Counted from the first letter of the stretch, positions 11,494 to 45,021 are shown. The stretch: 64,000 bases of DNA from an uncultured Clostridia bacterium (GCA_947053545.1 CAMRSY010000004.1:9006-73005), one strand, 5' to 3'. The notes: generated by a model from the sequence alone, not told the origin. Numbers and translations: made by a program.

Positions 11494-11727
11494 AAAATAA
11501 TTTTTCCTTAAATAAAAAAGCTTGATTTTTAAATTCAGCTATTATATAATAATAAAGTAATTTGCTGCGGTGGTAGAATTAGCAATCACTTTGCACTCAA
11601 AATTTTATGAGCGTAACGCAACTTTTTATCACTATTCGGTATTTTACCACAATATATAGTGTGTGTCAATCGCGCTATAATCAATGCAGAAAATCATTTC
11701 TCGCATTTTACAAATCCAACTTAATAT

Positions 11728-11814
11728 GCCGCTGTGGTGGAATTGGCAGACGCGCTGGACTCAAAATCCAGTGGTAGTGATACCGTATCGGTTCGACCCC
11801 GATCAGCGGCACCA
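11728..11814 (+). tRNA. tRNA-Leu(CAA)
   Basis: Hand fold: acceptor GCCGCTG/CAGCGGC, anticodon stem CTGGA/TCCAG with loop CTCAAAA, T-loop TTCGACC, CCA encoded. Confidence 0.9.
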
Positions 11815-11823
11815 AGTTAAGGG

Positions 11824-11857
11824 AAATTCTCCGTTTTTTTCGGAGAATTTTTTCTTT
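11824..11857 (+). terminator. Rho-independent terminator after tRNA-Leu(CAA)
   Basis: AAATTCTCCG-ttttttt-CGGAGAATTT followed by a T-run. Confidence 0.65.
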
Positions 11858-12078
11858 AACTATAGAAAGCTTTACGGATTTTGCGAGTTGATTTTCGTGT
11901 GTTTTATGTTCAATGTACACATATATGCTTTTCGTAGTAGTTGTTTGGTTATATCGAACAACTTTTGTGTTTATTAATAAAACTGTATTCGTTTTTCGAA
12001 ACGGACAAATCATAAAAATGACGGACAAATATTTGTCCGTCAATTTATAATAAATTTAAGTATTAATTCCGAAATTTA

Positions 12079-16965: not shown

Positions 16966-17059
16966 AAATTTTTAACGCTTTGAACGGCTTTACTTTTTCT
17001 TTACTATTCTTAACCTTTACAAATTGATTGTTATTATATTTTGGTATATAATAACTTTA

Positions 17060-17728
17060 ATGAACAAGGTCGAATACAAAAGCATTTTAATAGTTGAAGA
17101 CAACGATAAACTACGGGAAAATCTTACCTCTTATTTTGCCGTTATGAATAAGGTTGTGGCGTGCGAAAATCTGCAAAGTGCGATTTTGTCCGCCAAAAGC
17201 AATAAATTCGATATAGTGCTTTTAGACGTTATTCTCCCCGACGGCAACGGACTGAAACTGATAGAGCAAATAGGCGAAACGCCGGTAATCGTTCTTTCCG
17301 ACTTAGGCTCCGACAGCAATATGATAGACGGCTTTACGGCGGGCGCAACCGACTATATAGTAAAACCCGCCTCTTGCACGCATATAGAAATGCGGATGGC
17401 GCTTAGGCTTCTGCCCGACGGCAAGGCGCAATTATCCTCACATGAGCTGGAACTTAATACGGCTAAGCGAACGGCGGCATACAATAAGAAACCGCTTGAA
17501 CTGACTTCAAGCGAATTTAATATTTTAATGTTTTTGATGCAGAACGCGGGCACATATTTTACCGCGAACGAAATTTACGAACACGTGTGGAATATGCCGC
17601 ACCTGAACACCACCACTATAAAAGTCCACATATCTAACCTGCGCAAAAAAATGCTTGCCGTATCTCCGGACTGCGCAAAATTACTCATTCAGGAGTTCGG
17701 CAAAGGCTATGCGTTTATCAATGAATAA
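17060..17728 (+). CDS. OmpR/PhoB-family response regulator
   Basis: Receiver domain (ILIVEDND...LLDVILPDGNG) plus winged-helix C-terminus (LTSSEFNILMFLMQNAG...). Start placed at the ATG at 17060. Confidence 0.85.
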   Translation: MNKVEYKSILIVEDNDKLRENLTSYFAVMNKVVACENLQSAILSAKSNKFDIVLLDVILPDGNGLKLIEQIGETPVIVLSDLGSDSNMIDGFTAGATDYIVKPASCTHIEMRMALRLLPDGKAQLSSHELELNTAKRTAAYNKKPLELTSSEFNILMFLMQNAGTYFTANEIYEHVWNMPHLNTTTIKVHISNLRKKMLAVSPDCAKLLIQEFGKGYAFINE

Positions 17729-19805: not shown

Positions 19806-19873
19806 AATTTTTAACGGTACGGTCTATTAGCCAAAACAGTCCCCTGCCGTTATCTAAGTTTCATTGTAAATAA

Positions 19874-19910
19874 TAAAAATAACGGCGGTAATTAACCGCC
19901 GTTATTTTTA
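19874..19910. terminator. Bidirectional terminator between the convergent kinase and rubredoxin genes
   Basis: AAAAATAACGGCGG-taattaa-CCGCCGTTATTTTT. Confidence 0.75.
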
Positions 19911-19914
19911 TTGG

Positions 19915-20073
19915 TTATTCAGACATTATAAACTTATCTTTCCCGACAAAGCATAACGGACACAAAAAATCGTCCGGAACATTGCTCCATACTGTTTCAG
20001 GCGCTATTCCGCCCTCAGGATAACCTTGTTCCTCGTCATATTCCCAGCCGCAAACCTCGCAAATATATTTCAT
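19915..20073 (-). CDS. rubredoxin (52 aa; absent from the ORF track because <60 aa)
   Basis: Hand translation: MKYICEVCGWEYDEEQGYPEGGIAPETVWSNVPDDFLCPLCFVGKDKFIMSE*, with CxxCG and CPxC motifs. AAAGGAG RBS inside the 3' end of the rhodanese gene. Confidence 0.85.
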   Translation of the reverse strand: MKYICEVCGWEYDEEQGYPEGGIAPETVWSNVPDDFLCPLCFVGKDKFIMSE

Positions 20074-20075
20074 TT

Positions 20076-20378
20076 TCAACTCCTTTTTATACTCTCTAAA
20101 TTGATTATTCCGCCTATATCGGTTATGTTTAAATATCCCATACCGCTCAACGCCCGCGCCGCTTTTGCACTCCTAATTCCGCTATGACAATATACGTATA
20201 TAGGCGTAGTATTTTTGGTAACTTTCACTTTTACGTCTTCAATAGACTGAATAGGAATATTTACGCTACCCTCTATGTGATTTCGATTATATTCTTCCTT
20301 TGTTCTTACATCTAAAAGTACAGCGTTTTTATTTTGCCTGAATGCTTGCACGCCGTCAGTGATACTTATTTTGTCCAT
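20076..20378 (-). CDS. rhodanese-domain sulfurtransferase
   Basis: Active-site loop YCHSGIRS. Single-domain size (100 aa). Confidence 0.8.
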   Translation of the reverse strand: MDKISITDGVQAFRQNKNAVLLDVRTKEEYNRNHIEGSVNIPIQSIEDVKVKVTKNTTPIYVYCHSGIRSAKAARALSGMGYLNITDIGGIINLESIKRS

Positions 20379-20513
20379 ATAATAATTTTATACAAAATAT
20401 TAAGGTTAATGTATGCGCCTTAATTAAGTTTAATTTTGAATGTACTTGCAATAACAATTATTAATCTTTAATTGTTTAAAATTGCCTAATTAATTATCCA
20501 AATGCCAGCAAAA

Positions 20514-20948
20514 TCAATAAACATTGATATTGCACGATTTCATAACTTTTAATGCTGCAACGTGTCCTTCAGGATACGAAGCGCAGCAGCTGCTATCTAC
20601 CCGGATATCTGTGTAAGGTAAAAATGCCATTGTACCCAAAACGTTGGCAATAACGCAGATATCGGTACAAATTCCCACAAATTCGATTATCTCGGGTTGC
20701 AACCGCTGCAAATGCAAAATAAGTTCTTTACTGGCATAGGACCGCTTTTTGAATATCTGTGAGCCAAAGCATAACTTTGAAATTGATTCCTCTATTTTTC
20801 CACCCGACTTGTCTTCCGTAAGAATTATTTCGTAATCTTCCGACATTCTTGTTTCAATTTTTTTTATCACATTGTTTATTACGTCTTCCGTGCAGCATTT
20901 TTTTATATATTCTACTTGCATATCTATAACCACAAGAATTTTACTCAT
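20514..20948 (-). CDS. isochorismatase-family cysteine hydrolase
   Basis: D-K-C triad context: ILVVIDMQ, FKKRSY, GICTDICV. Confidence 0.75.
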   Translation of the reverse strand: MSKILVVIDMQVEYIKKCCTEDVINNVIKKIETRMSEDYEIILTEDKSGGKIEESISKLCFGSQIFKKRSYASKELILHLQRLQPEIIEFVGICTDICVIANVLGTMAFLPYTDIRVDSSCCASYPEGHVAALKVMKSCNINVY

Positions 20949-21015: not shown

Positions 21016-21062
21016 ACAAAAAAAGCCCTGCGGCGGAAATTCCGCCGCAGGACTTTTTTTGT
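21016..21062. terminator. Strong hairpin terminator closing the adhesin/anchor operon
   Basis: AAAAAAAG-CCTGCGGCGGAAATTCCGCCGCAGG-ACTTTTTTT. Confidence 0.75.
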
Positions 21063-21071
21063 ATCTACATA

Positions 21072-23516
21072 TTAAGATCTGCGCCTGTTGACGACAATAA
21101 CTACGGTTAGCGCTATTATTATAAGCACCGAAATTACGCTGATAACTATAATGGCAACAATATAAGGCATACTGTTATTTGTTTCCGAAACCGCACGGCT
21201 TATGTTTATCGTGTAACCGCTTACCGTTCCGTCTTCCGCAGTAACCTTAATAAAGTAGGGATTGTTACCGCCCGAAAGGCTTACCTTTTCCGATAAGCTT
21301 AGTTCATTCATCTGGCTATCGTACAACGTAACGGTTGCTCCCTCTATAGCTGCCGCGTATATCATAACCGAATCTACGTCGGCGGTAACCTCATATCCGT
21401 AGATATTGGTATTGTCGGAAACGTCCAAATCGTTTTCGTCACATTTCAAAGACGTAAGCATTTGCGAACCCAGCGGACGTAAAACGCACAATACATACGT
21501 ACCCTCGTCGCCGTTAGTGGCTTTCACACTTATTAAAATAGGATTTATGCCGCCTGACAACTTAACCGTACGCTTGCCTGCCGCAGGCGTTCCCTTATCG
21601 TTTATTATCGATATTACCGTCGCACTTGCATTGGGGTCGGTAGTCGTGGGCACGATATTAAGATTTTCAACATCTTTTGTAACCTCGACAAAGAAATAAT
21701 TCAAACCCGTTGATAAATCTACGGCGATTCCGTCGTACGTGAGCTTAGAAAGGGTTTTTACGTTCGATTCGTAAATTATATCGTAGGTAATCGTTTTTTC
21801 AACGATGTTGTTCTTGATAAAGCGAATAATATGCTTTGTCTTTTCAGCCCTGTTAATTTCGATATCGTAGTTAGTACCTTCAACCCTGTATTCGTCGCTG
21901 ACGAACGGATCGGCTTTTATTTTAAAGTGCGTTATCTCCAAGGTGAAAGGAATTGAAACAGTAAAATAATCGGCAACCGACGTTTCGGATATTACGAGTT
22001 GATGTTCTGAAACAACGGTATTACCGTCCTTTTTTAAACCTACTGCGGAAACGTTTGACAGCGCAAGTCCGCTGGTATCTTTCGCTATAACCACAACTAT
22101 AGTATAAATGTTTTCAACGCCGCTTTGAGACGTAACCTTAATTACTATACTGCCGGGAACGCTGTATTCACCCAAGCCGCTTACGCCGGAAAATTGCCCT
22201 GCAGCTTGCGCCTCTACTTTTACCTTTGTTGTTCCCTGCGGTACCGTAGCCGAATAAGTTGTTCTGTCCGGCGAAAACGATTCTGCAAAATTTACCGTTT
22301 CGTCACCGTCGGCTTTTACTATCTTCAAGGACAAAGACGACAACGTTGAATCCTCTTCTGCAGCTATTACCGAAAAAGTTATATTATATTCGGTAAAAGC
22401 AGATTTATCTTCCGAATAAACCTTTACCGTAACCGTATGCGCGCCCGCCGAAACAGTTCCCAAATTGCATCCCGACGTAGCCTCGATTACGGTGTTTCCC
22501 AGTTTGTTTCCGTCAAACATAATGTCTGCCGTCGTAAAATTACCGTTTTTAGTAAATTCGATTCTCAGGCGGTCTTTATCGGCGTAGGCAATTTGTCCCG
22601 CGTCGAACGTGCCGCCGTTAACAAGCGCGGTAGCGTTTATTTCGGGCGTTACGCTAACGGGCGTGCCGTTGTTTTTAAACGATAACGCCGATAGCGTGCG
22701 TATCTGCTCCGCCGCCTTTCTTGTTATATTTAACGTATAAGCCTGGGAAGACGACCCGTCCTCGGCGGTAACCGTAATAGTAACGGCATTTGCTCCTACG
22801 TCAAGGTTTGTTTTGCTAACCGTATATTTTGCGCCCGTGCTCACCTTAACTTTCAAATCGTTTAATGCTTTATAAGCGTACGGAACTTCGCACGTGTAAC
22901 TGAACCCCGAAGGCGTAAGTAGCGTTTTATTAACGCTCAATTCGGTAATTTTACATTCGTTAGAAGGAGATACAAAATTAATTGCAAGGTTTTCGCCCGT
23001 TATTACAGGATTGGCATCTTCGCCCATAGAGTCTAACAATTCTATTTCGCTTGCGCTAATCTGCGAAGACGTACCTGCCGTTAATGACGCTCCTTCCTTG
23101 ATTTTCAATGTTATCGAAGCTATCTTCCACTGCGTTTTCGACATCTCTTTGCCGTTATCGTCGCCCATCATAGTTATGTAGCCGGCATCTGTAGTCGAAT
23201 TGTTTCTGTCGTATTCGGAATTTTCGATATCGGTCGACTTATTGAAACTGACAAAGGCAAATACTTTTGTGTCGAAACTAAGTTTTACCTGAGCGCCCAG
23301 CATTGTTGTGCCCGTATTGTTTTTAACCGTTGCCGACACGGTGAACTGTTCGCCTGCCGCGTTTGTTTTAATTTCCGATAATGTAGAAGAAATTACTATT
23401 TCCGAACCGCCTGCCGCGTGTGCGTTTTTAACGGGCAGCTGTATGGCTAAAGCCGCACAGGCCGAAAACAAAATTAATAACATTACCAAAAATATTTTAT
23501 ATACTGTCTTTTTCAT
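21072..23516 (-). CDS. membrane-anchored scaffold: signal peptide, cohesin-like N-terminal module, about six cadherin-like beta-sandwich domains, C-terminal TM + RRRS
   Basis: N-terminal module (EIVISSTLSEI...FTVSATVKNNTGTTMLGAQVKLSFDTKVFAFVSF...ITLKIKEG) fits the cohesin pattern. Repeats end in YTLNITR, YNITFSV, YTIVVVI, YVLCVLR and YTINISR. TM span YIVAIIVISVISVLIIIALTVVIVV. Confidence 0.7.
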   Translation of the reverse strand: MKKTVYKIFLVMLLILFSACAALAIQLPVKNAHAAGGSEIVISSTLSEIKTNAAGEQFTVSATVKNNTGTTMLGAQVKLSFDTKVFAFVSFNKSTDIENSEYDRNNSTTDAGYITMMGDDNGKEMSKTQWKIASITLKIKEGASLTAGTSSQISASEIELLDSMGEDANPVITGENLAINFVSPSNECKITELSVNKTLLTPSGFSYTCEVPYAYKALNDLKVKVSTGAKYTVSKTNLDVGANAVTITVTAEDGSSSQAYTLNITRKAAEQIRTLSALSFKNNGTPVSVTPEINATALVNGGTFDAGQIAYADKDRLRIEFTKNGNFTTADIMFDGNKLGNTVIEATSGCNLGTVSAGAHTVTVKVYSEDKSAFTEYNITFSVIAAEEDSTLSSLSLKIVKADGDETVNFAESFSPDRTTYSATVPQGTTKVKVEAQAAGQFSGVSGLGEYSVPGSIVIKVTSQSGVENIYTIVVVIAKDTSGLALSNVSAVGLKKDGNTVVSEHQLVISETSVADYFTVSIPFTLEITHFKIKADPFVSDEYRVEGTNYDIEINRAEKTKHIIRFIKNNIVEKTITYDIIYESNVKTLSKLTYDGIAVDLSTGLNYFFVEVTKDVENLNIVPTTTDPNASATVISIINDKGTPAAGKRTVKLSGGINPILISVKATNGDEGTYVLCVLRPLGSQMLTSLKCDENDLDVSDNTNIYGYEVTADVDSVMIYAAAIEGATVTLYDSQMNELSLSEKVSLSGGNNPYFIKVTAEDGTVSGYTINISRAVSETNNSMPYIVAIIVISVISVLIIIALTVVIVVNRRRS

Positions 23517-26500
23517 AAGTCTTTATTCTCCTTCACGCTTAATCCCTCGTACAAATTTTTGGTTCCGAGGAAATAAGCGTTAAGCTGTGCCTTATCCGCC
23601 GCGCTTATTTTGCCGTCGCCGTTTAAGTCGCAGGCAAGTTTATTTACTGCGTCAAGCGTCTTTGTTCCTAAGAAATAAGCGTTTAATTGCGCCTTGTCAG
23701 CAGCGCTCAACTTACCGTCGCCGTTTACGTCGCCTTTAACTACAAGCGTTAACTGGTCGGTCGCAGTGCCGTTGTTGTACGCCTTAATAATTATTCCTGT
23801 AGCAACTTTCGTGTTCTCGATATCGGTTATTTCGGTTTCGCCGTCAGCGGTAAAAACCTTCACGTCGGTATTTTTAAACTGCGAAAGAATATCAGCAACT
23901 GTATCGTTAAGGGCCAGATTAATTAAGAAAGCGGGCTGCTCTATAGAATGGGTTTCCGCCTCAACGCCGTTTTCGTCAACTATTTTAAAAGTAGTATTAC
24001 TTTCTATAAGCGTAAAAATGTCGTCTGAGGAATTGCCCGACAGAGTAAGAATAGAATTTATGTCGCTCAGCTTCGCAACGTGTTCCGCAATTTCTTCTTT
24101 GGTGGCGTTTGCGTTATTTCTTACTGCTTCGGCAGCCGCAATAGCGTCAAGTAACGCCTGATAAGATATTTCGGTCCACTTTCCGTCTTCATTAGTGTTT
24201 GCAGATACAAAAGCGTTTGCAGCGTTTATTTTGTCAACAAGTTCGGTAAGCTCTATTATGCCGAACATTGCCTCTGTCAAATCGGTTTTAACCTTTTCAA
24301 ACTGCTCTCTGTCAGTGTTTCCCGAGGTCACGAATTCTTCTGCCGCAGTAATTTTTAACTTTAACAAATCAAGCGTAGATTCGGTAAATACTCTTTCACC
24401 TTCATCCGACTGTCTTACTAACTCTTTAGCCTCTTTAATAACGTCGTCAAGCGAAGCCGTATCCAGCCTTAACGCAATGCAAGCTTTTTCCAGAGCCTCT
24501 ACGGCGTCTTCAACCTGCTTGTTAGTGGAGTTTGCGCTTTCGTATACGGAGGTTGCCGCCTTTATGGAGTTTTGCAGAGCGGTAAACGTTTCTTCCGAAT
24601 ATTTGCCGTCGTCGTTATTATATGTTTTGGCCTCGGCGATTTTGTCTTTCAGCGCGCCTATGTCCACCATACCGCTGATGGCGTTGAAAAGTGTTGCGCA
24701 CACCATAGTATACGCCTCGTCGGTATCCTCTTCCGTGTCTTCGCCTGCGTCCGGATTAAAATCGTTAGCTTCCTGCAATGCCGAAATGAGATTTTCCAAC
24801 GACCTCTCGGTAAAATATCTCTTACCTTCTTCGCCTTCTTCCTTGCCGGCGGCAGCCAATATTTCGGTTGCCTGCTTAATAAGTCCGTCAAGCGCCTGCG
24901 TATCAAATTTCAACGCTTCGCGCGCGGCGACAAGATTTTGATATTCAACTACGTATTCGCTGATAACGTTGTTCGTACCTTCGCAATAAGCCTTACTCTG
25001 CGCAATCTGCGACTCTAACGCGGCGTACGTTGCGGCGACGTAATAGCTCTTGTTAAGCGCTTCGCACTCGGCTATAAGTTCAAGAAGAAGGCTCTTATGA
25101 AGCACAAGGTTTTCATAAGCGTTAACCAAGGCGTTATACGCGTTATCCACGTCTTCAGTCGTATAATCGTCGGGTTTTTCTATTATAAGTTTAGCCGCCG
25201 ATATTTGATTTTGCAAATTCAGATAAGATTCAACCGTATAATACTCGTAGGTATACATTTCCACGCCGATATACTCGGGATCGGGTTCGATAACGTTTCC
25301 TTCCTCGTCCTCGGCCGGTTTAATATGATGCCTGTTAAGTATTTCGGAAATTTCCGTAATATAATCCTGCAGCTTATTCGTATCGGGCTCTAACGCGGCC
25401 TCGGCAGCAAGAATAGCTTCTACGTTATCTATAGCGATATAATAACTGAACTCTTCCTTTTCACCGTTTTCATCGACGACGCCGCCGTTTAAAGCGTTTT
25501 CGGCGTTAGCTATCGCTTCTTCCAAAAGCGCAAGCCCGTCTTCCGCATACGAACCGCTTAAAAGCAGTTTCTTCTCTTCAATAAACGCCCTATAGTTTTC
25601 GATATCGGGCGCAATATTTTCAATTGCGGTTTCAAGGCTTTCCAGCACCTGCTTATATTCTTCAATTACCTCAAACTTGGTGGCATAGTCAACAACGCTC
25701 AACCTGCCGCTTGCCAACAGTTGTTTAGCCGTTGCAAGGGCGTCGGTAACAGCCTGATACGTTTCTGCCGTTATATACTGCGAATTTAAACTTTCCGCCA
25801 AATAGATAGCCATATCAAGTTTATCGGTTATAATTACCAAGCCGTCCATAGCGTTTTTAATTATGCTTATAAAGTCGTCAACGTCTTCTTCGCAGATTTT
25901 GTCGTTTATAAGCCCTTCAACCATATCAGTCTGCGTTACCAAAGCAAGATATGTTAATTCGGAATAATACTCTCTGTTAACTTCCTGCGCTCTTGCAATT
26001 TCGATAATCTCGAGAATAAGCGTAGGGTCGATAACGATATTATCTATTGCAAATACCAAATCGTCGAGTACCTGCTGCACCTCGTCCAAGGTAGGGCGGA
26101 TTTTTCTTTCAGGGTCTTCAATTATTTCGTAAGTTTTAACCGCGATATCATAGGGCACTTTCAGCAAATCACGCGATGCCTGCGTAAATACTTCAGGGCG
26201 GGCAAAAATCTTTTCCGCCTTCACTATTCTGTCGTGCAGTTCGGACGAATCAATTTTCAAATCGAAAATGGCTTTTTCCAAATTTTCGGACGCCGTTTTA
26301 ACGTCCTGCACGGATACCGACGGGTCGTTTACAACGTCTACCGCAGCGCTTAAAGCAGTTTGCAAATTGTTCCAGGTTCCGCTTTCATACACAACAAATA
26401 CTTTAAGCTCGCCCTTCTCGTCCAAAATCCAGTTGCCGTCGTTATCCTGCCTGTGTTTCGTGTTAGTCCATACGCTAACTTCTTTTACCCTTTCGGCAAG

Positions 26501-29500
26501 CGCGGTTTTATCGGCTTTCATATTCGCAAACGCCGTTTCGAAATCTTTTATTGCCTTTAATACATCGTCGTTAGAAGGATTATCGCCGCTCGCGTCCAGC
26601 ATTGCCTGGGCAGATGCGCCCAAAGCTTTAACCGCCGCAACGCTTTCCGCCGCGTAGCCGAGTTTGCCTATATAGTCTTCCCTGCTTTCGTCCGTTACAA
26701 TCGATATGTATTCGGTAAGAATTGAAACGTCAACTTTAATGCCTTCAATGGCCGCTACAAGTTCGTTTGTCGCAGTTTTAACTTTTGCAATGTATTCCTT
26801 ATTGTTTTTATCCTCTTCAGTAAACGACGAACACTCATCAACACAATCCGCCGCCGAGTTGCGCGCGTCGGTAAGGGTTGTCAATGTGTCGGCAAGATAA
26901 TACTTTTTATTCTGATTCTCTTCTGCAAGAATTAAATCGGCTTCCTTAATTTTGTCTTTTAAGAAATCGAGATTGACTTTCAGATTGAGTATGGCCGCAT
27001 TCAGCGCTATAGCCGCTTTGTTCACATCGTCTACAGTTGCTTCCGCATTGTCGTACACGTCTATTGCCGTATTCAACGCGTCAATAAGCTCGGCAAGGCT
27101 TTCGTCATCGTAAATGCTTTGGCTCGACTCTTCCCTTGCGATATCTATCAGATTTTTAAGATATTCCTTATTAATTTCCAAACCGTCGATAGCCGCCTGC
27201 AAATCTGCCAGCACCTTATCAACGTTTGCCGAATACGCAATAAACTGGTTGGGCTTTGCAGGGTCGCGCAGAAGCTCTTCGTTGGCAACCGTCATTGCCG
27301 CTTCAAACGTTGCCCAGCTGCTTAACGTATATTGCTCTTTCTTCTTTGTTCCGGCAATATTATATGCGTCGCTCAACGCGGTTTTATCTATCGTAAGGTT
27401 ATTTAACGCAACGCTTAAATCGTACGCGCACTGAGTTACCATCGTTCCGCTGGCTTGCTCGTTTTCGTATGTTTCAACTGCAGCGTTAAACGCATTGTTA
27501 AACGAAACCGTCGATTCGAATTTGCTATCGTCAAGCTTATTCGTCGGGTCTAAAACAACTTTACCGTCCGCAAAGGTAACTGATCCGCCCAAAGATTCGT
27601 AAGCTTCCTTTATTTTCGATTCGAGGTTGCTCTTATCTATTTTCAGTTCGCTTAACGCTTTGTTTATCGCTGCGGTCGCATCGCATACCTGTTTTGCCGT
27701 AGCATTAACGTCGTTATTAACAGCTACGCCTTCCGCCCTAACCGCTTTAAGGTTGTCGATATCTTCCTTCGTATAATCTTTTTCGGCACCTAATATAATG
27801 TTGTTTGCTTTGGTGATAGCATCGTTCAGCTTGGCCTTATTGACAACAAGATTTTTATTTGCCATTTCAAGCGTGGAAAGCGCCAGTTGAGCGTCTATAT
27901 TTTTATATTTGTTCGAATCTTCCTCAAGTACTGTACGCGCAAGTTCCAGCGCGCTGTCCATTGTTACGAAATTTACAAACCATTCTCTGTAAGGAACCTT
28001 ATTGTTTATTATATCGTCGTAAAGTTCCCTTAAAGCCGTCGTTTCGGGCCTCAGCCCCTCGATAGCCGCGTAAATTTCTTTTATGTACTGCTTTTTCTGA
28101 ACGTCGGTCATCGTAGCGGAATTTGCTTCGGCTTCCCTTACGATTCCCATCAATCTGCCGTAAGTTAATTCACTCCAGTCTTCCGCCTTATACGAAAGAG
28201 CCAAATCAATAGCTTCGTCAAGGTCGGAATTGTCTTCCGGAAGGCCGATAAGCGTAGGCAGACCGTTATTAGTATCCACATTGTGCTGCCATATACCGCC
28301 ACTGTTAATTTCCCATTCGGTTAAAATATTTACGCAGTCGGTCTTGAACAAATCAAGGCTTTCAATGTAATTATCCGCCTGAATACGCGCCTGATATTTG
28401 CTGTTTTTTACAAACGTTTCAACTCCGTCCAGCGCATAATTCCTAACGGCGTTAGTGCCGGCCGTGGGAAGATTAGCCGCCGTAGAGCCGCCTGTTGCTA
28501 TTTCCGCAGTCTGCAGATAGGTTGTTTTACCGCTTGTCGCCGAAATGCCGGTAGCTAAAGAAACACAATCAAGAATTTTATCGTATTTTGAAACGGTATA
28601 TCCCAGAATGCCTGCTGCGTGCGAGGTTGCATAAGTAGCGGAAGGTTTGCCGCTTACTGCCGAAAGCGTTCCGCTGAAATAACAGTTATAAATACCGTTG
28701 TACGCCTGATGGAAGACTCCCACGATACCGCCGGCAAGAGCCCACTGTGCGGAAGACGTATCGCTTACGTTTCCTATAGCGTAGCTGTTATAAATATGCG
28801 TTCTGTACTCGCCGACGCCTACCAGACCGCCCGCGCCGTATCCGCTTGCAAGCGTAGCCGTAACATTTGCCCTGGCGTAACTCATATATATTTCGCCGTC
28901 GCGGAACAGTCCCACAAGTCCGCCTACATACTTTCCGCCTTCAACGCGCGCCGTGGCAAAACTGCAGCTTATAGTACTGAATCCTCTGTCGGCATTGCCT
29001 ACAAGCCCGCCGATGTTTCCGCCCTGATTGGTAACACTGCCGCCCAGAACCGCGCAACTGGTAATAGAAAGATTGCCGTACGAATACCCTATCAATCCAC
29101 CTACGTTAGAATAAGACGTACCGGTTTGAGAAATGTTGGGTTTAATAACGTTTACGTTTTTAAAGTTTGCAAACTTAACGTAGCCGAACACGCCTACGTT
29201 TGAAGCATTTTTAGATAGGTTGGCGCCGGTTATCTTAAAGTTTCCGCCGTCGTAATTACCTGAAAAACTGTGTTTGAAATCGTAACCTGTTATACCTATG
29301 CCGTCTATATTTATATCGGCCGTCTGCTTAATATAAATTCCGTTATAGCAAACACCGTCATTTATATTTTGACTGAATTCGGCAAAATCTTCGGTGCTTG
29401 CCAAAGGAATGGGGTTATACCGCGATCCCAAATCGTAGGAAGGCGCACCAACCGCCTTCAAATAGGGGAAACCGTCGTTAACTCCGTCTTCTCTTGCCCA

Positions 29501-32500
29501 AACGCTTTCAAAATCCCAGCCCAGTCCTAAAGTGTCGGACTGATAAGTTCCCGTCTGCTTGAACATATCGTAAGCTTTCGGCTCGCACGCTACGCCCGTA
29601 GTATCGTTTGCATACCCTCTCTGTTTGGAAGCCATCCAACAATCTTCACTGTAAAAGTTTGCGCGTCCGGTTATGGTTACGGGGACAACCTTGTTATACC
29701 CGTTGCCCATATAACTTGCATATCTTACGTAAGTTGCCGTAGATACGCTTACTACCGCCAAGTTGGAAGAGTATATTTTTTCGCTGATAGTTGCACAGCC
29801 GCCCACAGTTGTGGAAGCAACGTTACCTAAACCGATAATTCCGCCCGCCATTGCGTGCCTGCTTGCAACACTGTTGGTTGCCATTATGTTGCCTAATACG
29901 TAACAGTTTTCAATACGGCAACCTTTAATAGCAATCAATCCGACTATACCGCCCGCATAGGCGCTGCTGTCCTTATTGGCGTTATAAACCATTACGTCGC
30001 CCGTAGAAAAACAATCGGTTATCGAAGCGGCATAAGTGGCCAGTCTGCCCGCTATTCCACCCGCATGAGATACACCGTCGCTTACAACAGCCCCCGTAGA
30101 ATAGCACTGGGAAATATTGACGCCTTCACCAAGCCCCAAAATTCCGCCTATCTGCGAACTGGTGCCGGTAACGTTGCGGTTAGACCAGCATTTAGTAATT
30201 GTTATTCGGTTGGCCGCCTTTGCCAAAGCGCGCCCTACTATGCCACCTACGTAAGCCTTGCCCTTAACAGGCGATAAAACGTTTGTATTTCCGCTTGCTT
30301 CGGGGTCAAACGTAGTGCTGCAGCCTTCAATTAAAGTTGTCTGCGCAGTAGTTGTAAGACTTATATAACCGACAATTCCGCCAACGTTGTTTGCATTTGC
30401 TTCCACAGAACCGCCTACCACGTGGCAGTTGATAATTTCGCAGTTTCTTATCAAGCCCGCAATTCCCCCCGCGCTTTCATAAGCCGTAGAAGCAATAACG
30501 GGATTTTTTAAAGTAAGGTTTTTGATAGTGGCATTTATTGCTATGGCAAACAACCCCTTATAGGCAGCCTGCTTGTTTACGTACATATTAGAAATTGTAT
30601 GTCCGTCGCCGTCGAAAGTGCCTGCGAAATAATATGTGGTATTTATACCGATCGGCGTCCAGTTGTCAACCGCCGATAAATCTATATCAGCTACCAGCTT
30701 TACCGTTAACCCGGCGTAAGTATTGCCCGAATTAACATAATCGCGAAAAGCAGACAGTTCTTCTTCCGTTGCAATTTCTATTGCATCGCCGCCCACACCG
30801 GGATAACTGTACTCGTTACCCTGTAAAACGGGAAGCTCAAGATCGGGATCCCACGACCAGGTGTTTACAAAATCGTAACCCATGGTGTTCTTCCACCACG
30901 CCAAATTTGTTTCTCCGTCCTGCGAATAATAATCGTACAACTTTGCGTCGGTGGTTTTATCGTTGGCAAAATAACTGCAGGGCGCATATGTGCCGCAGCT
31001 GGAATAATTTACATTATTAGCGTAATAATTGTTGGTCGCGTTTGCAGTATCGCGTATGTATTTATAAGAATTGGTTTTAGCGGTAGGATACTGAATTACG
31101 CCTGTACCCGCTGCATTGAGTCCGCCGTATCTGTAAGGCTCTACAGTAGAGAAAAGCGTACCATACCGCTTGTGTGCGGTTTTGTTGTTGGGCTGCTGCT
31201 TAAACGAAGTGTAAAACGCGGCGTTATTAGTTAATGTAACCTCAGGCGCGGCCAATCTGGCTACCAAACCGCCGAACCTAGTTGATGTACCCGAACCTAT
31301 TGCCGTGGTGGCGTTATAAACTATGCTTCCGGTATAATAGCAATTTTCTATTTTTGAACCTCTGGAGGTGCCGTCGACGTGTCCGATAAACGAGCCTTCG
31401 GCTCCCGCAGTAACATTGCTTGTAGAAAAACAGTCTTTTACATTCGAATTATTGTACAAACCACCGACAAGGGCGCCCGTAAAATATGTTAAAACTTTAT
31501 GAGCGTCGTTGTACACTTCGCCAGCAGTATAACACCTTACTACGTCTCCGCCGGAAACAATCCCCGCAAGTCCGCCCGAATCGATTGTTGTCGCCGCGCC
31601 TTTTGCCGTTAAGATATGCACGTCTACCGTGGAAGAACAATCGACAATTAAACCGCCTTTGTTGAATCCGGACAAATAACCGACTATGCCGCCCATGTAG
31701 GACCTACCCAAAATACAGGATTCCTGAGCGGTAGGCTTGCTACTTCTGATCACGTGGCATTTGCTAATTTTACCGTTCCACTCTATACTTCCCGCTATGC
31801 CCCCGACAAAGTCGCCCCCTTCACCTGTAAAATACGGGTCTTCAAGGGTAATTTCGTTTAATTCGGCGCTCATTACTCTGCCGACAAGACCCTTATAATC
31901 GGTGGCTTTGGCTATTTCCATATTCTTAAGAACGTGGTTATTGCCGTTGATTATTAAATATGCGGGACTTTTGTTTAACGCCAATCCCATAGGCGTCCAT
32001 TCGCCGAGCTCTATATCTTCGGTAATATTTATCGTCAGTTCGTGAATGGGCACGCCCGAGTTAACCAACTTTACAACATTTAAAAACTCGTCTCTGGTTG
32101 CAACGTCGTAAACCGTGCTTTCGTGCTCTTTGAACGTCAGCCCTTTTAATACCGGTCTACCTCCGTTTACCGAGGCGTTTATTTCCCATATTTCGGTATC
32201 GAAATCTTTGAAAACTCCGCCGAATGACATATTGTCTGCAACAGAAATTGCGCTTACCCTGTCGCCCATAGCGTTTAGATCGAGAACTATCAGGTCCGCG
32301 TTATTCTGATTTATGTATTCCGCATCGTTTACGTATTTTAGATTATCCGAATTGCCCTGCGTTGCCGTAGCGGTCTCCTCGCACGAGAAAGTGGCAATGG
32401 GAGAAAAAGCGTTACCCACAGCGTAATCGGTAGCTTCGTAGTGCGTACTCAAGCTTACGGCGTTTGTAATCGTCGCGTTACAGTCAACAAGCCCTACTAT

Positions 32501-33856: not shown

Positions 33857-34026
33857 AAAGCTTACCCCCGCAACTTTCCGAAACTTTTACGAAACGTTTA
33901 CTAACGTAATATTGCAATATTGCTGTGCATTGCGACGCTACGCACAGATTATCTTTTTGCTCAAGAAAAAAGATATTTCGCATTTACAAAAGGGCATAAT
34001 ACCCCTAGTTTCATTTATTCAAGTTA

Positions 34027-34056
34027 ATAATATCATATGTTTTTACAATATGTCAA
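34027..34056 (-). promoter_or_regulatory. Candidate sigmaA promoter of the giant-protein gene (TTGACA-18-TGaTATTAT)
   Basis: Minus strand: -35 at 34056-34051, extended -10 at 34035-34027. Leaves a leader of roughly 165 nt. Confidence 0.5.
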
Positions 34057-34094
34057 TATTAATCCCGAAAAAAATGCATAAATACACATTTTAC

Positions 34095-34134
34095 ACAAAA
34101 AAATGCACGCGGAAATTACAATTTCCGCGTGCAC
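34095..34134 (-). terminator. Rho-independent terminator after the second sipW-like gene
   Basis: Minus strand: GCACGCGGAAAT-tgta-ATTTCCGCGTGC followed by TTTTTTT. Confidence 0.75.
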
Positions 34135-34146
34135 CGAGCCGACAGT

Positions 34147-34797
34147 TTATCCATCGTGATCGCTCTTTTTATCTGAAGAAGGCAATTCGCCGTTTCCCGA
34201 ATCGCCGCTTTCGCAGTTTCTTACGCAAGTCGTAAGTTTTTCCGATTTTTTTTGTTTGAAAATTTTAATTATTTTTATTACTTGCTGCACTATAAACGGC
34301 ACCGCCACGGCTAAAATAATAATTAATATTCCGTAACGGTTTATAAATCCGAATACTTTTCCCCACCCCGCGGAATTGAAAATACAAATTCCCAGCAAAT
34401 TGCCGCTTGTTACTAAATCTTTATCAGGCTGCGGATTGGTTTTACCGTTTAACCCCTGAGTTATAATTCCATCGGCGGTTATTTCCTTTACCGCATGCAC
34501 TATGCTTTGCCCTTTAAGCCGCCCGAAACCGTCGCCGGCAATAAACACAACGTAATCGCCCGGCTTCACGTCTTCGTACGAACAAGCGTGAAAAGCAATT
34601 AAATCGCCCGTCATTATATAAGGTTCCATCGAATTGGTCTGCACCAGCGCAAACGACGTGCCGAAAAAGCTTACCGGCTTATTTTTTGCCCGGCAGTAAA
34701 TCATATTTATTATAACTATTGCCGCCAACGCTATTATAAGCGCGGTTAAAACGGTAAAAATTATTGAAAAAACTTTCTTTACCGAAACATTGCTCAT
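34147..34797 (-). CDS. SipW-type (ER/archaeal-type, S26B) signal peptidase I, copy 2
   Basis: N-terminal TM, catalytic Ser box QTNSMEPYIMTGDLI, His box SIVHAV, C-terminal TM. Start placed at MSNVSVKK (34797), overlapping (ATGA) the stop of the upstream gene. Confidence 0.75.
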   Translation of the reverse strand: MSNVSVKKVFSIIFTVLTALIIALAAIVIINMIYCRAKNKPVSFFGTSFALVQTNSMEPYIMTGDLIAFHACSYEDVKPGDYVVFIAGDGFGRLKGQSIVHAVKEITADGIITQGLNGKTNPQPDKDLVTSGNLLGICIFNSAGWGKVFGFINRYGILIIILAVAVPFIVQQVIKIIKIFKQKKSEKLTTCVRNCESGDSGNGELPSSDKKSDHDG

Positions 34798-36245
34798 TTT
34801 TTTCCCCGCGTACGTTTTATAGTCGTAAGCTTTTTGCGGATAACCCGCTTGGGCCTTGCCTTTTCTTTTTCTTCGGCAAGTTCCTTTTGCAGCCGTGCCA
34901 GCCTCGATTCCGCGCGTTCCGCCATACGTTGCGCCCGCTCTACCTCTTCCCATTTCAGTTTTAAAAAAAGTTTGCGCCTGCGTATTCGCTCCTGCTGCTC
35001 CTTTATCGCGGCGCGCTTTTTCTCTATCGCGCCCTGCTGAGTCTTTTCAGCGGATACGCCTTTTATCTGTTCTTCGATTAATTCGTTGAACATCTCGTCG
35101 TTGATACGCGAAACCGATCGGAAAAACTTTGAAAAATTAACGTTTAAGCGGTTTTCAACCTCGAATTCGCCCTCTTTTGCCGAAGCTGTGAGTTCGTCTT
35201 TCATCTTTCGGAAATAATATTCGTTTATAGTTTCCTCGCCCGCCTGCTCTTTGGAAAAGTTAAAATCGGGCGTAAACTCGTAACTGGTAACAATAGCAAA
35301 CTCCCGCTCCTGCGGCACGGAAAAATCGATTCCGTCATATTCTTCTCGTTTTAAAATTCTGTCGGTAATAAGCGACTGCAAACTAAGCCCCGCAATTACC
35401 GTCAAATCATCGAAGTAATCGCCGTCGACAGGCAAATTTTTATCTTTAACCTCGATTGAATAGCCCAGATAAGTGTACGACGAAATATATAACCAAAGTT
35501 TATAACAGTTGTTGTAGTCGACGTTCTTGTTTAAAAGGTTTGTCTTCTGAATTGGCGGACGCACGGGTTTTGCTTTGCCGAGTTTTTTCATAAATTCGGT
35601 AGACTGCAAAACGCGCAGCCTGCGCCTTATTAAAGCAACCCTGTCGAAAAGATCCTTGTTTTTATTCGCATCCTTCTCGTCTTGCGGAGGCTCTTCAACC
35701 TGCAAATTTATATTGCACTTGAATTTGCTTTTACCGTATTCGAACTGCGACTGCACGCAAACGTTGGTCTGCTCGAAACTTTGCACCTTTCCGTTAAGGT
35801 CCTTATACCGCTGTTCCACAAATATAATAAGTCGGTTTATCAACGCGCAGATAAAGCGATTTTCGTAAATAGCCAAATCCTCGTCCAGTTCAGCCGTAAG
35901 CAATTTTTTTGGCATAACGTCGCCGTTTTTATCGATATTCTGTACGTATTGCGAATTTGTTGTAAGATGACGGACGGTTTTTGAATTTGTGCGGCGCACC
36001 TTGGCAACGTCTAAAATCAATTCGTTTTCGGCGATAAATTTACGGGGATTTCGTACAATCTGTTCGATAGAATGCAGCGAGTTTTCAAGCATTAATACCC
36101 ATCCGTCGTCAAGCATAACCGCCTGTGAAACCACGTTATGCAAAACCTTGTTTTCTCCCCCGCGCAACGCGGCAAAAAAACGCGAATAGCTTTCGGCGTC
36201 GCCGTCAATTTTGTTTATGAAATTATTGAGAAATGACTTATCCAT
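34794..36245 (-). CDS. McrC/DUF2357-like partner protein with highly charged C-terminal coiled coil (483 aa)
   Basis: Sits directly downstream of a McrB-family AAA+ gene. Motif LAIYENRFICALINRLI resembles the conserved YENRF helix of DUF2357/McrC-type partners (from memory, not searched). The last ~90 aa are Lys/Arg/Glu-rich heptad-like sequence. No clear nuclease domain. Confidence 0.45.
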   Translation of the reverse strand: MDKSFLNNFINKIDGDAESYSRFFAALRGGENKVLHNVVSQAVMLDDGWVLMLENSLHSIEQIVRNPRKFIAENELILDVAKVRRTNSKTVRHLTTNSQYVQNIDKNGDVMPKKLLTAELDEDLAIYENRFICALINRLIIFVEQRYKDLNGKVQSFEQTNVCVQSQFEYGKSKFKCNINLQVEEPPQDEKDANKNKDLFDRVALIRRRLRVLQSTEFMKKLGKAKPVRPPIQKTNLLNKNVDYNNCYKLWLYISSYTYLGYSIEVKDKNLPVDGDYFDDLTVIAGLSLQSLITDRILKREEYDGIDFSVPQEREFAIVTSYEFTPDFNFSKEQAGEETINEYYFRKMKDELTASAKEGEFEVENRLNVNFSKFFRSVSRINDEMFNELIEEQIKGVSAEKTQQGAIEKKRAAIKEQQERIRRRKLFLKLKWEEVERAQRMAERAESRLARLQKELAEEKEKARPKRVIRKKLTTIKRTRGKK

Positions 36246-36253
36246 AAGTTACC

Positions 36254-36286
36254 TTAAAAATATAGCCCAACCCGTCGGGTCAGGCT
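36254..36286 (-). terminator. Attenuator-like hairpin plus short T-run between the McrB-like gene and its partner
   Basis: Minus strand: AGCCTGACCC-gac-GGGTTGGGCT followed by ATATTTTT. About a 10-bp stem including G-U pairs. Confidence 0.35.
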
Positions 36287-36305
36287 TTCGGAGTATACAC
36301 CCCTG

Positions 36306-42600: not shown

Positions 42601-44796
42601 TTACTTGCCGTTTTTAGCCGCCGCTACGCGCTTGTAATCGAACGTATTGACAATTTCGAGCGCGGCTTCAGGCTTCATAGACTTTCCAATAATCCAGCCC
42701 TGTATGGTATCGCAGCCCAGATAATTAAGCATATCGAACTCCTGCGTGGTTTCAACGCCCTCGCAAATCGTCGTCCTGTTCAAAAGTTTTGCAATATTGG
42801 TAATAAATTTGACTATTGCCTGACTCTCTTTACTGATTAATACGTCTTTAACAAACTCTTTATCTATTTTTATAGTAGATATGGGAAGCTTTTTAATGTA
42901 AAGCAAAGATGAATATTCGGTACCGAAATCGTCGAGATGCACATTTATGCCGTGCGAAGTTAAAATATCCAGCTTTTTTAAAGTTTCGTTAAAGTTGGTC
43001 ATCAAAAAGCTTTCGGTAATTTCAACGCAAACCGAGCCGGGTTTCAGATTGTATTTTTTATAAATTTTTAAAAAGTTTTCGGTAAAACCGGCCTGCATAA
43101 GCTGAACGGGCGAAACGTTTAACGAAACGCTAACATTTTTCCCCTCAAGTTTTTTGGCAAACTGCATACCCGAATCGAAAATGAAATCGCCCAGCTGAAC
43201 CATTGCCCCCGTGCGCTCGGCATATGTTATAAACGAAAACGTATCAACGTTTACGTTCCAACTCTTTTTTACCCTGAAAAGCGCTTCGAAGCCCTCTATC
43301 CTCTCTTCTTTAATATTGTACTGCGGCTGATACTCCATTTCAAATGCGCCCTCGGCAAGCATCTGTTTAATGTCGAACGTGATGAAATATTTTTCATACA
43401 GTTTTCTCTGCGACTCGTGATAGACGATATATTCCGCAATTTTGGTGTCGACAGCGCGCTGACGCGCCGCCTCGGCAGCCTTGTACGCGTGTTCGAAATT
43501 CAGCGGCGACATACTTGCGTCGCACATTGCAAAACCCGATTTGATGTCAAGCGTAAACAGATTGTCTTCCATTTTTAAAGGCGAGTTGACATACCTGTGG
43601 ATATCTTCCAAATCGGCCATTAAAATATCTAGTTTTTTGCCGTCGGGATAAACAACGCCGATATACCCGAAATCAAGCTCGTATGCGTATGTAAATTTTT
43701 CGTGCGCCTTTTTTAAAATTACGCGCTGAATATCTACCGCCATCTGTTTCCCGAACAGTGTTTTTATCTGTTCGAGACTGCTGATAAACATAATGCCCAA
43801 CAGCGTACGTTTGCCTTTGGATATAAAACTGTCGAACACTTTCGAAAGCGAGGCGGTCGATTTTCCGTCCGAATCGAATTTGGCAACGTTTTCCTCGCTT
43901 TGAATAAACGCGTCGGCGTTAACTATATCGGCGGCATACACAACCGAGCGGTTAGGCTGCGAATTTATTCGCATTGCAACCAGCCTGTCGCCGTAGTTGC
44001 CGTTTAAACTTACAAGATTAAACGCTATTTTATCAAGCTTTTCAGGTTCGTCAATTTTAACCGTCGTTGCAAACTCGTGCTTGAACGCGCTGTTTGAATG
44101 CAGTATTTTGCCCGTTTTATCTATCGTTACTTTATATTTAAACCTGTCCGACTTTTCGCGGTTACCTAAAAAGTACGCGCCGGCTACAAACGCAGCGGTT
44201 ATTATAATTCCCGAAGCTATCAGTACGGCTACGGTATTTCCCAGCAAATTATCTATTATTTTCTGCCGCTCGTTAAAGTCGGTTAAACCGCCTATTCGAA
44301 AAGCGCTGTCTCCCAGCCGCGAAGAAGAAAAAATGTACGTCTTGCCGCCGATTTCCACCGTTCCGGCGGCTCCGTAAGACACTCCTATATCTTTCAGGCT
44401 TCCGCTAAGCTCAAGCTCCCCTCCGTCGATAATACTTCCGCCCTGCGCTTCACTGAAAATTATGTAATAATCGAAAGCTGCAGACGAACCGCACTCTTCC
44501 GCGATGCTCTCAATAAGCGCGCCGTTGCCTAAAAGCCCGTCGATATCCGCAGCGTGCGCACCGTAAATTTTTGTTGCAAGCGATTCGGATTTTTGACTGT
44601 ATCCCGCAAATTCCTGCTTATATATTTTAGAAGAAAACTGACTGAATATAAACAGACCTGCCGCAACCTCTACAAGTATTATTATCGCGACGAAAACCAA
44701 AACTTTGAAAACGGAAGATTTATTCAGTTGAGGCAAAGATTTTTTCTTCTTTTTCACCGTTCTCCCCCGCCGTAACTTTATTACGGTATAATACAT
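42601..44796 (-). CDS. sensor-domain + degenerate-GGDEF + EAL protein (c-di-GMP phosphodiesterase)
   Basis: Two TM helices flank a ~150-aa extracytoplasmic segment. No GGDEF motif. EAL motifs FEALFRV, EITE, DDFGTEYSSL, KIDKEF, CEGVET, QGW. Confidence 0.85.
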   Translation of the reverse strand: MYYTVIKLRRGRTVKKKKKSLPQLNKSSVFKVLVFVAIIILVEVAAGLFIFSQFSSKIYKQEFAGYSQKSESLATKIYGAHAADIDGLLGNGALIESIAEECGSSAAFDYYIIFSEAQGGSIIDGGELELSGSLKDIGVSYGAAGTVEIGGKTYIFSSSRLGDSAFRIGGLTDFNERQKIIDNLLGNTVAVLIASGIIITAAFVAGAYFLGNREKSDRFKYKVTIDKTGKILHSNSAFKHEFATTVKIDEPEKLDKIAFNLVSLNGNYGDRLVAMRINSQPNRSVVYAADIVNADAFIQSEENVAKFDSDGKSTASLSKVFDSFISKGKRTLLGIMFISSLEQIKTLFGKQMAVDIQRVILKKAHEKFTYAYELDFGYIGVVYPDGKKLDILMADLEDIHRYVNSPLKMEDNLFTLDIKSGFAMCDASMSPLNFEHAYKAAEAARQRAVDTKIAEYIVYHESQRKLYEKYFITFDIKQMLAEGAFEMEYQPQYNIKEERIEGFEALFRVKKSWNVNVDTFSFITYAERTGAMVQLGDFIFDSGMQFAKKLEGKNVSVSLNVSPVQLMQAGFTENFLKIYKKYNLKPGSVCVEITESFLMTNFNETLKKLDILTSHGINVHLDDFGTEYSSLLYIKKLPISTIKIDKEFVKDVLISKESQAIVKFITNIAKLLNRTTICEGVETTQEFDMLNYLGCDTIQGWIIGKSMKPEAALEIVNTFDYKRVAAAKNGK

Positions 44797-44946: not shown

Positions 44947-45021
44947 TGGTACTCCCGACGGGAATCGAACCCATAACTAACCCTTAGGAGGGGTTTATTA
45001 TATCCATTTAACTACGGAAGC
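44947..45021 (-). tRNA. tRNA-Arg(CCT)
   Basis: Hand fold: anticodon stem AACCC/GGGTT with loop CTCCTAA, T-loop TTCGATT, CCA encoded. The acceptor stem contains two G-U pairs. Confidence 0.8.

Follow-up and report, generated by a model that had tools for sequence, protein, structure and literature searches.

A 64,000-nucleotide stretch of DNA from an uncultured Clostridia bacterium (GCA_947053545.1, CAMRSY010000004.1:9006-73005), hereafter the window, carries about 24 kb of uninterrupted minus-strand genes between positions 21072 and 44796, counted from its first letter. An earlier note on this DNA had read these genes as a single apparatus gated by cyclic di-GMP (c-di-GMP) and including a giant adhesin with its scaffold. 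The analysis reported here very probably resolves the 24 kb into two separate units, a conserved module at 34147-44796 and an adhesin pair at 21072-33856, and the locus is classed as CoCoPALM-type. Open reading frame (ORF) listing and domain scans reproduce all eleven elements named in the note, on the minus strand and at the same coordinates; its list left out two hairpins (38944-38907 and 36286-36264) and probably placed the start of the first gene, EAL1, 13 codons too early. In the direction of transcription the features are as follows.

44829-44802, minus strand: EAL1 promoter with extended -10, TTGACA-16-TATAAT with TG, 12/12 match to consensus
42601-44796, minus strand: EAL1, membrane sensor-type c-di-GMP phosphodiesterase (Pfam EAL, 1.8e-58)
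41183-42586, minus strand: EAL2, one transmembrane (TM) segment, degenerate GGDEF and EAL (Pfam EAL 1.5e-54, GGDEF 8.5e-11)
41082-41054, minus strand: operon promoter, sigma-70-type, TTGACA-17-TAAAAT, 11/12 matches, by consensus match only
41040-40950, minus strand: c-di-GMP-I (GEMM-I) riboswitch aptamer, full length (Rfam RF01051, 66.9 bits)
40955-40912, minus strand: expression platform as read from the sequence, a 9-bp terminator stem (GCCAAAGCU/AGUUUUGGC), then a U-run at 40911-40901
40066-40857, minus strand: putative fibre subunit 1, 263 aa, N-terminal hydrophobic signal with VFAGF core, no Pfam match
38959-39966, minus strand: putative fibre subunit 2, 335 aa, SipW-type signal peptide GSTFAWF (TIGR04088, 24 bits)
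38944-38907, minus strand: strong hairpin, 17 bp with T-run, between subunit 2 and SipW-1
37879-38772, minus strand: SipW-1, archaeal/endoplasmic reticulum-type signal peptidase I (TIGR02228, 58.3 bits)
36306-37844, minus strand: McrB-like NxD GTPase, 512 aa (McrB structures, E 1e-5; PADLOC PDC-M26A, 8.5e-41)
36286-36264, minus strand: weaker hairpin between the McrB-like and McrC-like genes
34794-36245, minus strand: McrC-like DUF2357 protein (PF09823, 1.1e-8)
34147-34797, minus strand: SipW-2 (TIGR02228, 57.3 bits), overlapping the McrC-like stop codon (ATGA)
34135-34102, minus strand: strong intrinsic terminator, 15-bp stem, ending the conserved operon
34056-34027, minus strand: adhesin promoter, TTGACA-18-TATTAT, by consensus match
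23513-33856, minus strand: giant protein, 3447 aa, with Glug, FIVAR and type I dockerin domains and a Sec AxA signal
21072-23516, minus strand: scaffold with cohesin, four cadherin-like domains and a C-terminal TM segment, ATGA-coupled to the giant protein
21027-21051: terminator after the scaffold

Conservation and class of the module

Homologues were sought in one genome per species, with an alignment of the McrB-like protein as query, and at least 569 relatives were confirmed. The module is syntenic across several hundred species, from Coproplasma and Christensenellales to Acholeplasma and Anaeroplasma, and its carriers are gut and environmental Bacillota, including the cultivable Acholeplasma laidlawii. 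Synteny counts are based on the best 80 of these relatives, whose species-level loci (L numbers, with positions within the locus) were compared with the window proteins; for each feature only loci with enough flanking DNA were counted. The 80 loci span Clostridia and Acholeplasmatales and include Candidatus Coproplasma, Christensenellales-type Clostridia, A. laidlawii, Paracholeplasma and Anaeroplasma.

Gene order is closely kept. The McrC-like gene is adjacent to the McrB-like gene and follows it in 74 of 74 loci, a SipW gene lies directly upstream of the McrB-like gene in 64 of 67, and a second SipW is found downstream in 43 of 48. Aptamers for c-di-GMP are present in 35 of the 38 loci with at least 8 kb of upstream DNA. 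EAL genes are found within the locus, upstream or downstream, in 20 of the 23 loci having both flanks, the pair being relocated as a unit to the downstream end in some Christensenellales-type loci (L040, L048, L052). From the fixed synteny, the riboswitches and the tandem subunits it follows that the core module is real and old. The order kept across the 80 loci also bears out the placement of the McrB/McrC-like pair as an integral part of the signal-peptidase/fibre operon and not a chance neighbour. The comparison across genomes that the note had proposed came out in two parts: this pair stays with SipW and the subunits, and the adhesin pair is missing from the relatives.

Pairwise identities were taken against the sister species, defined as the relative with a 90% identical McrB-like protein. 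The corresponding values are 85% for EAL2, 80% for the McrC-like protein, 75% for PolA, 74% for EAL1, 61% for SipW-2, 57.5% for CoaE, 50% for SipW-1 and 49% for subunit 1, and subunit 2 aligns over the signal peptide only. No full-length relative of the McrB-like protein was found on 2.9 million IMG/VR viral contigs, nor on 72,556 PLSDB plasmids, where matches are confined to the GTPase domain at no more than 43% identity. Conservation of the McrB-like protein above that of PolA and the lack of full-length viral or plasmid copies point to a core machine of the cell whose exposed product evolves fast. A mobile defence island was considered and rejected, given the same lack of full-length copies, the fixed synteny and the absence of an effector.

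A class that holds much of this arrangement has been named. In one paragraph, Bell, Makarova, Wolf and Koonin (eLife 2024, PMC11090510) give a large clade of NxD McrB GTPases the name CoCoPALM and leave its treatment to a later paper; a McrB-like GTPase combined with a McrC homologue and a signal peptidase is named there, contrary to the statement in the note that no described system combines the parts of the locus. As that paper describes it, the class has in common with the window locus a McrB GTPase of the NxD type that carries an N-terminal TM and coiled-coil fusion, a DUF2357 McrC homologue next to it that has a coiled coil and lacks an active nuclease, signal-peptidase-family genes on the flanks, and Bacillota hosts. 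Three of the four features given in that text are present in the window (NxD GTPase, adjacent coiled-coil McrC homologue, signal-peptidase association). For the fourth, an FtsB-like N-terminus, the TM and coiled-coil architecture is present, and FtsB homology is not shown by sequence: HMMER/Pfam searches of McrB-like N-termini gave no FtsB match, and in one homologue a weak FtsL match (E 0.044). On balance, window 34147-44796 is likely to be one instance of a conserved chromosomal CoCoPALM-type module.

Differences from the named class are also evident, in that the searched text of Bell et al. contains no c-di-GMP-I riboswitch, EAL pair, two SipW paralogues or tandem hypervariable subunits; the portion of its supplements available holds no CoCoPALM text. 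In the literature no later paper on CoCoPALM was found, and likewise nothing on PDC-M26 beyond Bell et al. New relative to the known class are the predicted c-di-GMP ON-switch, the EAL pair and the tandem hypervariable subunits, for which no description was found in the literature. In the module a GTPase pair of restriction-enzyme lineage has long been fixed in a surface-structure operon, under stronger constraint than DNA polymerase I. Annotators of defence genes are likely to mislabel the McrB-like gene by its PDC-M26A match, though the module is non-mobile and nuclease-less.

Components of the conserved module

The aptamer in the window scores well above the Rfam gathering score for c-di-GMP-I (35 bits), and the 5' arm of the terminator starts inside its conserved 3' end. 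A hairpin and U-run whose 5' arm begins in the aptamer 3' end, with covarying stems, was present in all 16 loci examined. Aptamer and terminator compete for the same bases and ligand binding should therefore favour read-through, which suggests a predicted ON switch, and the operon is very probably c-di-GMP responsive. From seven aptamer loci confirmed by Rfam a covariance model was built, and its scan of the related loci gave 67 matches, all on the operon strand and often in tandem. Two or three aptamers in a row are seen in many related loci (L033:5146-5219, 5295-5368 and 15113-15190; L040:8926-9009; L058:14841-15148), and in some loci further aptamers stand immediately ahead of SipW-1 or of downstream subunit sets, an arrangement that suggests c-di-GMP control at several points or in a cooperative manner. 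In a rabbit-gut Clostridia metagenome-assembled genome (L017), no c-di-GMP-I aptamer was found between EAL2 and the gene of the first subunit; this intergenic spot contains a match to the orphan Gut-1 RNA motif (L017:5064-5149, 55.6 bits, gathering score 50), on the opposite strand (minus strand of the locus) and with repeated GUGAAAU-plus-hairpin units.

In Clostridioides difficile, a c-di-GMP riboswitch in the leader of CD2831 and pilA1 switches on surface-adhesion genes at high c-di-GMP. The window operon likewise has such a riboswitch in its leader with surface genes downstream, but the cargo there is sortase-anchored adhesins or type IV pili and here SipW-dependent subunits. No text linking a c-di-GMP riboswitch to SipW, or to Acholeplasma, was found in the literature.

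Upstream of the riboswitch, EAL1 has two hydrophobic segments and, by sequence, intact catalytic motifs (EALxR, DDFGT, EGVE). It is called as 718 aa in three of the four same-species contigs, and its true start is probably 13 codons downstream, near 44757. The EAL domain of EAL2 also has intact motifs (ESLVR, DDFGL, EGVE). Since a 12/12 promoter stands directly upstream of EAL1, the EAL genes form a transcription unit of their own, apart from the riboswitch-led operon. A tRNA gene at 44950-45021 lies just beyond that promoter. A LapD/LapG-like gate for the giant adhesin was considered and rejected: the EAL motifs are intact, no LapG-like protease is found in the locus, and the adhesin is not conserved. 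Both EAL proteins score 62-72 bits against a LapD equivalog cut-off of 1020.

Both window subunits carry the W-x-EG-x-D-x-DC motif at the C-terminus (BLASTP E 2e-7). Subunit 1 is the better conserved of the two and for that reason a candidate minor or base subunit. Subunit 2 aligns with its counterpart in the sister species over the signal peptide alone (window 38959-39966 and L085:8101-8934), and one homologue cluster (P0272) is just 79% identical; its hypervariable middle makes it the candidate major subunit, and the variability is consistent with diversifying selection on an exposed, putative fibre. The position of subunit 2 is occupied in other loci by one to five tandem paralogues. Of 837 ORFs on the operon strand of related loci, 95 have a T(F/Y)AW(F) signal, against 0 of the 221 on the opposite strand. 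These ORFs always lie upstream of SipW-1, and the stretch from the riboswitch to SipW-1 holds 1-5 of them in tandem. The TIGR04088 match of subunit 2 exceeds the cut-off of 19 bits for the SipW-cognate signal peptide, and its AlphaFold2 monomer model is beta-rich (pLDDT, or predicted local distance difference test, 78.7; predicted template modelling score, pTM, 0.81). The hairpin at 38944-38907 is probably an attenuating terminator that would set an excess of subunit transcript over machinery.

The label TasA-like used in the note holds as far as the signal peptide and the predicted beta-rich fold; no Pfam family is reached. Peptidase_M73 (TasA/camelysin) matches neither window subunit, and only 3 of 34 homologues reach it at E 0.05 or worse. 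Given the lack of a significant Foldseek match as well, the subunit is not called a TasA family member, and TasA-like serves as a working analogy. The top fold neighbours of subunit 2, which are non-significant, are archaeal donor-strand filaments, namely Sulfolobus threads (Saci_0406, PDB 7pnb) and Pyrobaculum bundling pili (7ueg), at E 0.03 and 1; they differ in having no detectable sequence similarity to subunit 2 and template modelling scores (TM-scores) of only 0.18-0.30. The subunits of these filaments are cut by a signal peptidase I of archaeal type, and SipW is of that class. We know of no GTPase in the archaeal donor-strand filament systems.

Both peptidases score above the TIGR02228 (SipW) cut-off of 51.85 bits. 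SipW-1 has TM segments at both the N- and the C-terminus and a cytoplasmic tail that is acidic and about 95 aa long; 66 orthologues keep its SM, NTHRI and GD boxes. For SipW-2, 60 orthologues keep the Ser and His boxes; the third box differs consistently between SipW-1 and SipW-2, which are therefore two anciently separated paralogues.

Dedicated SipW-type peptidases encoded together with secreted subunits bearing cognate signals are also a feature of tapA-sipW-tasA in Bacillus subtilis and sipW-bsaA-bsaB-bsaC in Clostridium perfringens, in which extracellular donor-strand polymerisation is expected (PMC9674648; PMC11580942). The window locus differs from both in that its mature subunits are not detectably Peptidase_M73/TasA, in having two SipW paralogues and an obligatory GTPase pair, in lacking a TapA or von Willebrand factor A (vWA) protein, and in its control by a c-di-GMP riboswitch as opposed to SinR/AbrB-type or two-component control. 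A mention of McrB in the preprint on C. perfringens BsaA proved to be an E. coli genotype only.

The GTPase core of the McrB-like protein aligns to the E. coli McrB structures 6hz4, 6ut6 and 7vsr (E 1e-5). Its best PADLOC match is PDC-M26A, a CoCoNuT-like model, against which it scores far higher than against E. coli McrB (5.5e-5). Walker A, Walker B, GTANNDD and an Arg-containing box are invariant. Among the 150 closest cluster representatives (50% identity) the signature reads GTAN-x-D, where a second D is optional (GTANRD, GTANQD and GTANKDD, for instance); the NxD spacing assigns the protein to the NxD clade, so that the AAA+ motor of the note is more precisely an NxD-clade McrB-type GTPase. 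An N-terminal TM-like segment occurs in 84 of these 150 clusters, the others being long, TM-less and CoCoNuT-like. In the window protein, hydrophobic or TM segments at about 9-33 and 55-78 precede a heptad-rich charged coiled coil at about 85-125. The N-terminal 190 residues, hydrophobic or coiled-coil, stand at the place of the canonical McrB DNA-binding domain and gave no domain match, with no DNA-binding specificity domain among them.

The AlphaFold2 model of the McrC-like protein, of moderate confidence, has a DUF2357 helical bundle and a long beta-hairpin at 157-185 resembling the McrC finger. Beyond residue 185 it is all-helical, with a C-terminal helix of about 60 residues (406-463, coiled coil) and a strongly basic tail. 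The coiled-coil region matches only coiled-coil chains in PDB profile searches. No nuclease was found by Pfam, Foldseek or PDB profile search, and the model, at its moderate confidence, has no strands after residue 185; Foldseek with this low-pTM model returned nothing meaningful. In A. laidlawii the McrC-like protein (L053:11556-13829) is 757 aa long and ends in a Rho_N (HeH-type) domain (E 3e-9). PHROGs matches for the four core proteins were nil or negligible.

The pair thus resembles E. coli McrBC in its homologous AAA+ GTPase core and in a partner with the McrC N-terminal domain and a predicted finger-like beta-hairpin. It differs in having neither the N-terminal DNA-binding domain nor the PD-(D/E)xK nuclease, in the NxD as opposed to NxxD signature, in its membrane anchoring, and in its vertical inheritance with secretion genes.

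The adhesin pair and the SipW-2-polA interval

The giant protein ends in a Dockerin_1 domain (residues 3374-3430, 1.8e-11), and the scaffold carries a Cohesin domain (2.9e-12). The predicted pairing has the dockerin on the cargo and the cohesin on the anchored scaffold. The unit is set apart from the upstream operon by its own promoter after a strong terminator, by a 170-nt leader in which an Rfam search found no riboswitch, and by ordinary Sec AxA signals on both proteins in place of SipW-type ones. Homologues of the giant protein and the scaffold were found only on same-species contigs, in all four of which the two genes are adjacent and co-stranded. The pair is absent from all 80 loci of other species and from sister-species loci, and its inclusion in a single apparatus, as the note had it, was not borne out in any other species examined. 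In the sister species the genes that come next after SipW-2 are those for isochorismatase and PolA.

In other species polA comes immediately after SipW-2, or isochorismatase with polA behind it, or unrelated metabolic genes; the window has its isochorismatase at 20514-20948 and its polA at 8938-11493. As gene content differs across species, the SipW-2-polA interval is a variable spot, and it looks like a variable insertion hot spot. The adhesin pair is best read as an independent, self-contained cohesin-dockerin adhesin inserted in this species specifically, and separating it from the module averts a misleading annotation as a super-apparatus. Also within this interval, window 11500-20500 holds genes absent from the sister species, among them a rhodanese (20076-20378, minus strand), an OmpR-type response regulator (17024-17728, plus strand) and a histidine kinase (17655-19805, plus strand), together with a secreted protein of 1628 aa without a Pfam domain (12079-16965, minus strand) and a tRNA (11728-11811).

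Proposed mechanism and alternative explanations

In the proposed mechanism, which is rather more likely than not, high c-di-GMP would lead to binding of the GEMM-I aptamer, sequestration of the terminator 5' arm and transcription into the fibre genes, and the two membrane EAL phosphodiesterases, transcribed separately, would lower c-di-GMP and form the off side. Subunits 1 and 2 would be exported by Sec and kept tethered by their SipW-type signal peptides until cleavage by the SipW paralogues exposes an N-terminal strand for extracellular polymerisation into a donor-strand fibre resembling TasA or archaeal threads. Subunit 2 and its tandem paralogues would form an antigenically variable shaft, and the hairpin after subunit 2 would lower the dosage of the machinery genes. 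As in McrBC, the beta-hairpin of the McrC-like protein probably plugs a ring formed by the McrB-like GTPase, and the TM/coiled-coil N-terminus of the GTPase would hold this ring at the inner membrane face. The GTPase pair and the two peptidases could then be a cytoplasmic-membrane platform gating, energising or anchoring subunit processing and assembly.

What the analysis shows is gene content, homology, synteny, conservation and the identity of the riboswitch; the ON direction, fibre formation and any role of the GTPase in assembly are what we infer. That the GTPase is needed for fibre biogenesis has a little less than an even chance. Somewhat more tentative is the fuller proposal that the ring is an obligatory energy-using part of the fibre pathway, which either gates or drives SipW-dependent processing and polymerisation or anchors the fibre in the membrane. 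Membrane anchoring would matter most in the wall-less Acholeplasma. If true, this would be the first TasA-type fibre system to depend on nucleoside triphosphate and the first case in which McrBC is shown to serve outside defence, and it would be switched on by c-di-GMP.

Several points weigh against the proposed fibre machine. Fibre formation itself is deduced from the signal peptide, the beta-rich model and the tandem hypervariable paralogy; Foldseek gave no significant match for the subunit 2 model (best E 0.03, TM-scores 0.18-0.30), and no PDB chain was matched by the fibre subunit in sequence or profile searches. To our knowledge TasA-type fibres in Bacillus need no nucleoside triphosphatase (NTPase), so that analogy leaves the GTPase role unexplained. 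The McrC-like model has a pLDDT of 67 and a pTM of 0.43, moderate confidence only. The direction of the riboswitch is taken from structural overlap, and in the window and L003 the terminator was read from the sequence, computed minimum free energy folds pairing these bases differently. CoCoPALM is a named and uncharacterised class, with no experiment on any member. Finally, large non-homologous secreted proteins are found in or beside the locus elsewhere (1201 and 2182 aa in L040 and L052, more than 1384 aa in L053), some of them with weak, short similarity to residues of about 1020-1350 of the giant protein (E 3e-5 to 6e-4); there may be a loose functional or ecological link between a fibre and a big adhesin.

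These large proteins lend something to the idea of a single 24-kb c-di-GMP-gated apparatus, in which the fibre machinery and a membrane motor would assemble, display or turn over the dockerin adhesin on its cohesin scaffold, as does the adjacency of all the genes on one strand in the four same-species contigs. It is nevertheless improbable, given the absence of the pair from the 80 other-species loci and from a sister species with 90% McrB identity, the terminator and new promoter that separate the units, the leader free of a riboswitch and the Sec AxA signals; cohesin-dockerin anchoring, moreover, needs no further machinery. No more credit can be given to anti-phage or type IV restriction-like defence by the McrB/McrC-like pair, as a CoCoNuT relative embedded in the fibre operon or co-opted beside it, for example to guard a fibre serving as phage receptor. 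The best PADLOC match is indeed the defence candidate PDC-M26A, Bell et al. also place CoCoNuT systems in the NxD clade, GTPase-domain-only relatives occur on plasmids, and the hypervariable subunits suggest phage or host pressure. Such defence is very unlikely, however, for a McrC-like protein with no nuclease or other effector domain and a McrB-like protein with no DNA- or RNA-binding specificity domain, in a gene order that is fixed across distant classes with vertical-looking inheritance and has no full-length relatives on viral contigs or plasmids; conservation above that of PolA is atypical of defence genes.

The pair could also be a regulatory switch or checkpoint in place of a mechanical device, coupling cell-cycle or envelope state to the activity or localisation of SipW through an FtsB/FtsL-like TM-coiled-coil region. 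The TM and coiled-coil N-terminus resembles the divisome FtsB/FtsL architecture described in Bell et al., with the weak FtsL match of one homologue beside it; coiled coils or charged tails on the McrB-like protein, the McrC-like protein and SipW-1 suggest an interaction scaffold; and McrC sets the GTPase rate in McrBC (PMC11090510). No sensor or output domain was identified, and a structural or enzymatic partner of the peptidases would account equally well for such extreme conservation and strict adjacency; sequence alone does not separate a switch from the main explanation. A switch is unlikely, though it deserves more weight than the other alternatives. The least probable is the handling of nucleic acid at the membrane, for instance release or uptake of extracellular DNA linked to a matrix fibre: the nucleic-acid-binding Rho_N domain of the A. 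laidlawii McrC-like protein, the basic tail of the window protein and the ancestry of McrBC in a DNA-translocating GTPase speak for it, but the conserved genes of the locus include none for a channel, a nuclease or competence, Rho_N is missing from the window protein, and the McrB DNA-binding domain is replaced by a membrane anchor.

With the fibre machine as the preferred explanation, the comparative picture gives the CoCoPALM class a testable model and a tractable organism, and it ties c-di-GMP signalling to the class. In A. laidlawii the locus extends further (L053:14385-21535, NZ_CP126461.2): downstream of SipW-2 there is a second set of small proteins with SipW signals, including a true Peptidase_M73 match, followed by a third signal peptidase (S26/S24) and the protein of more than 1384 aa, which is without a Pfam domain.

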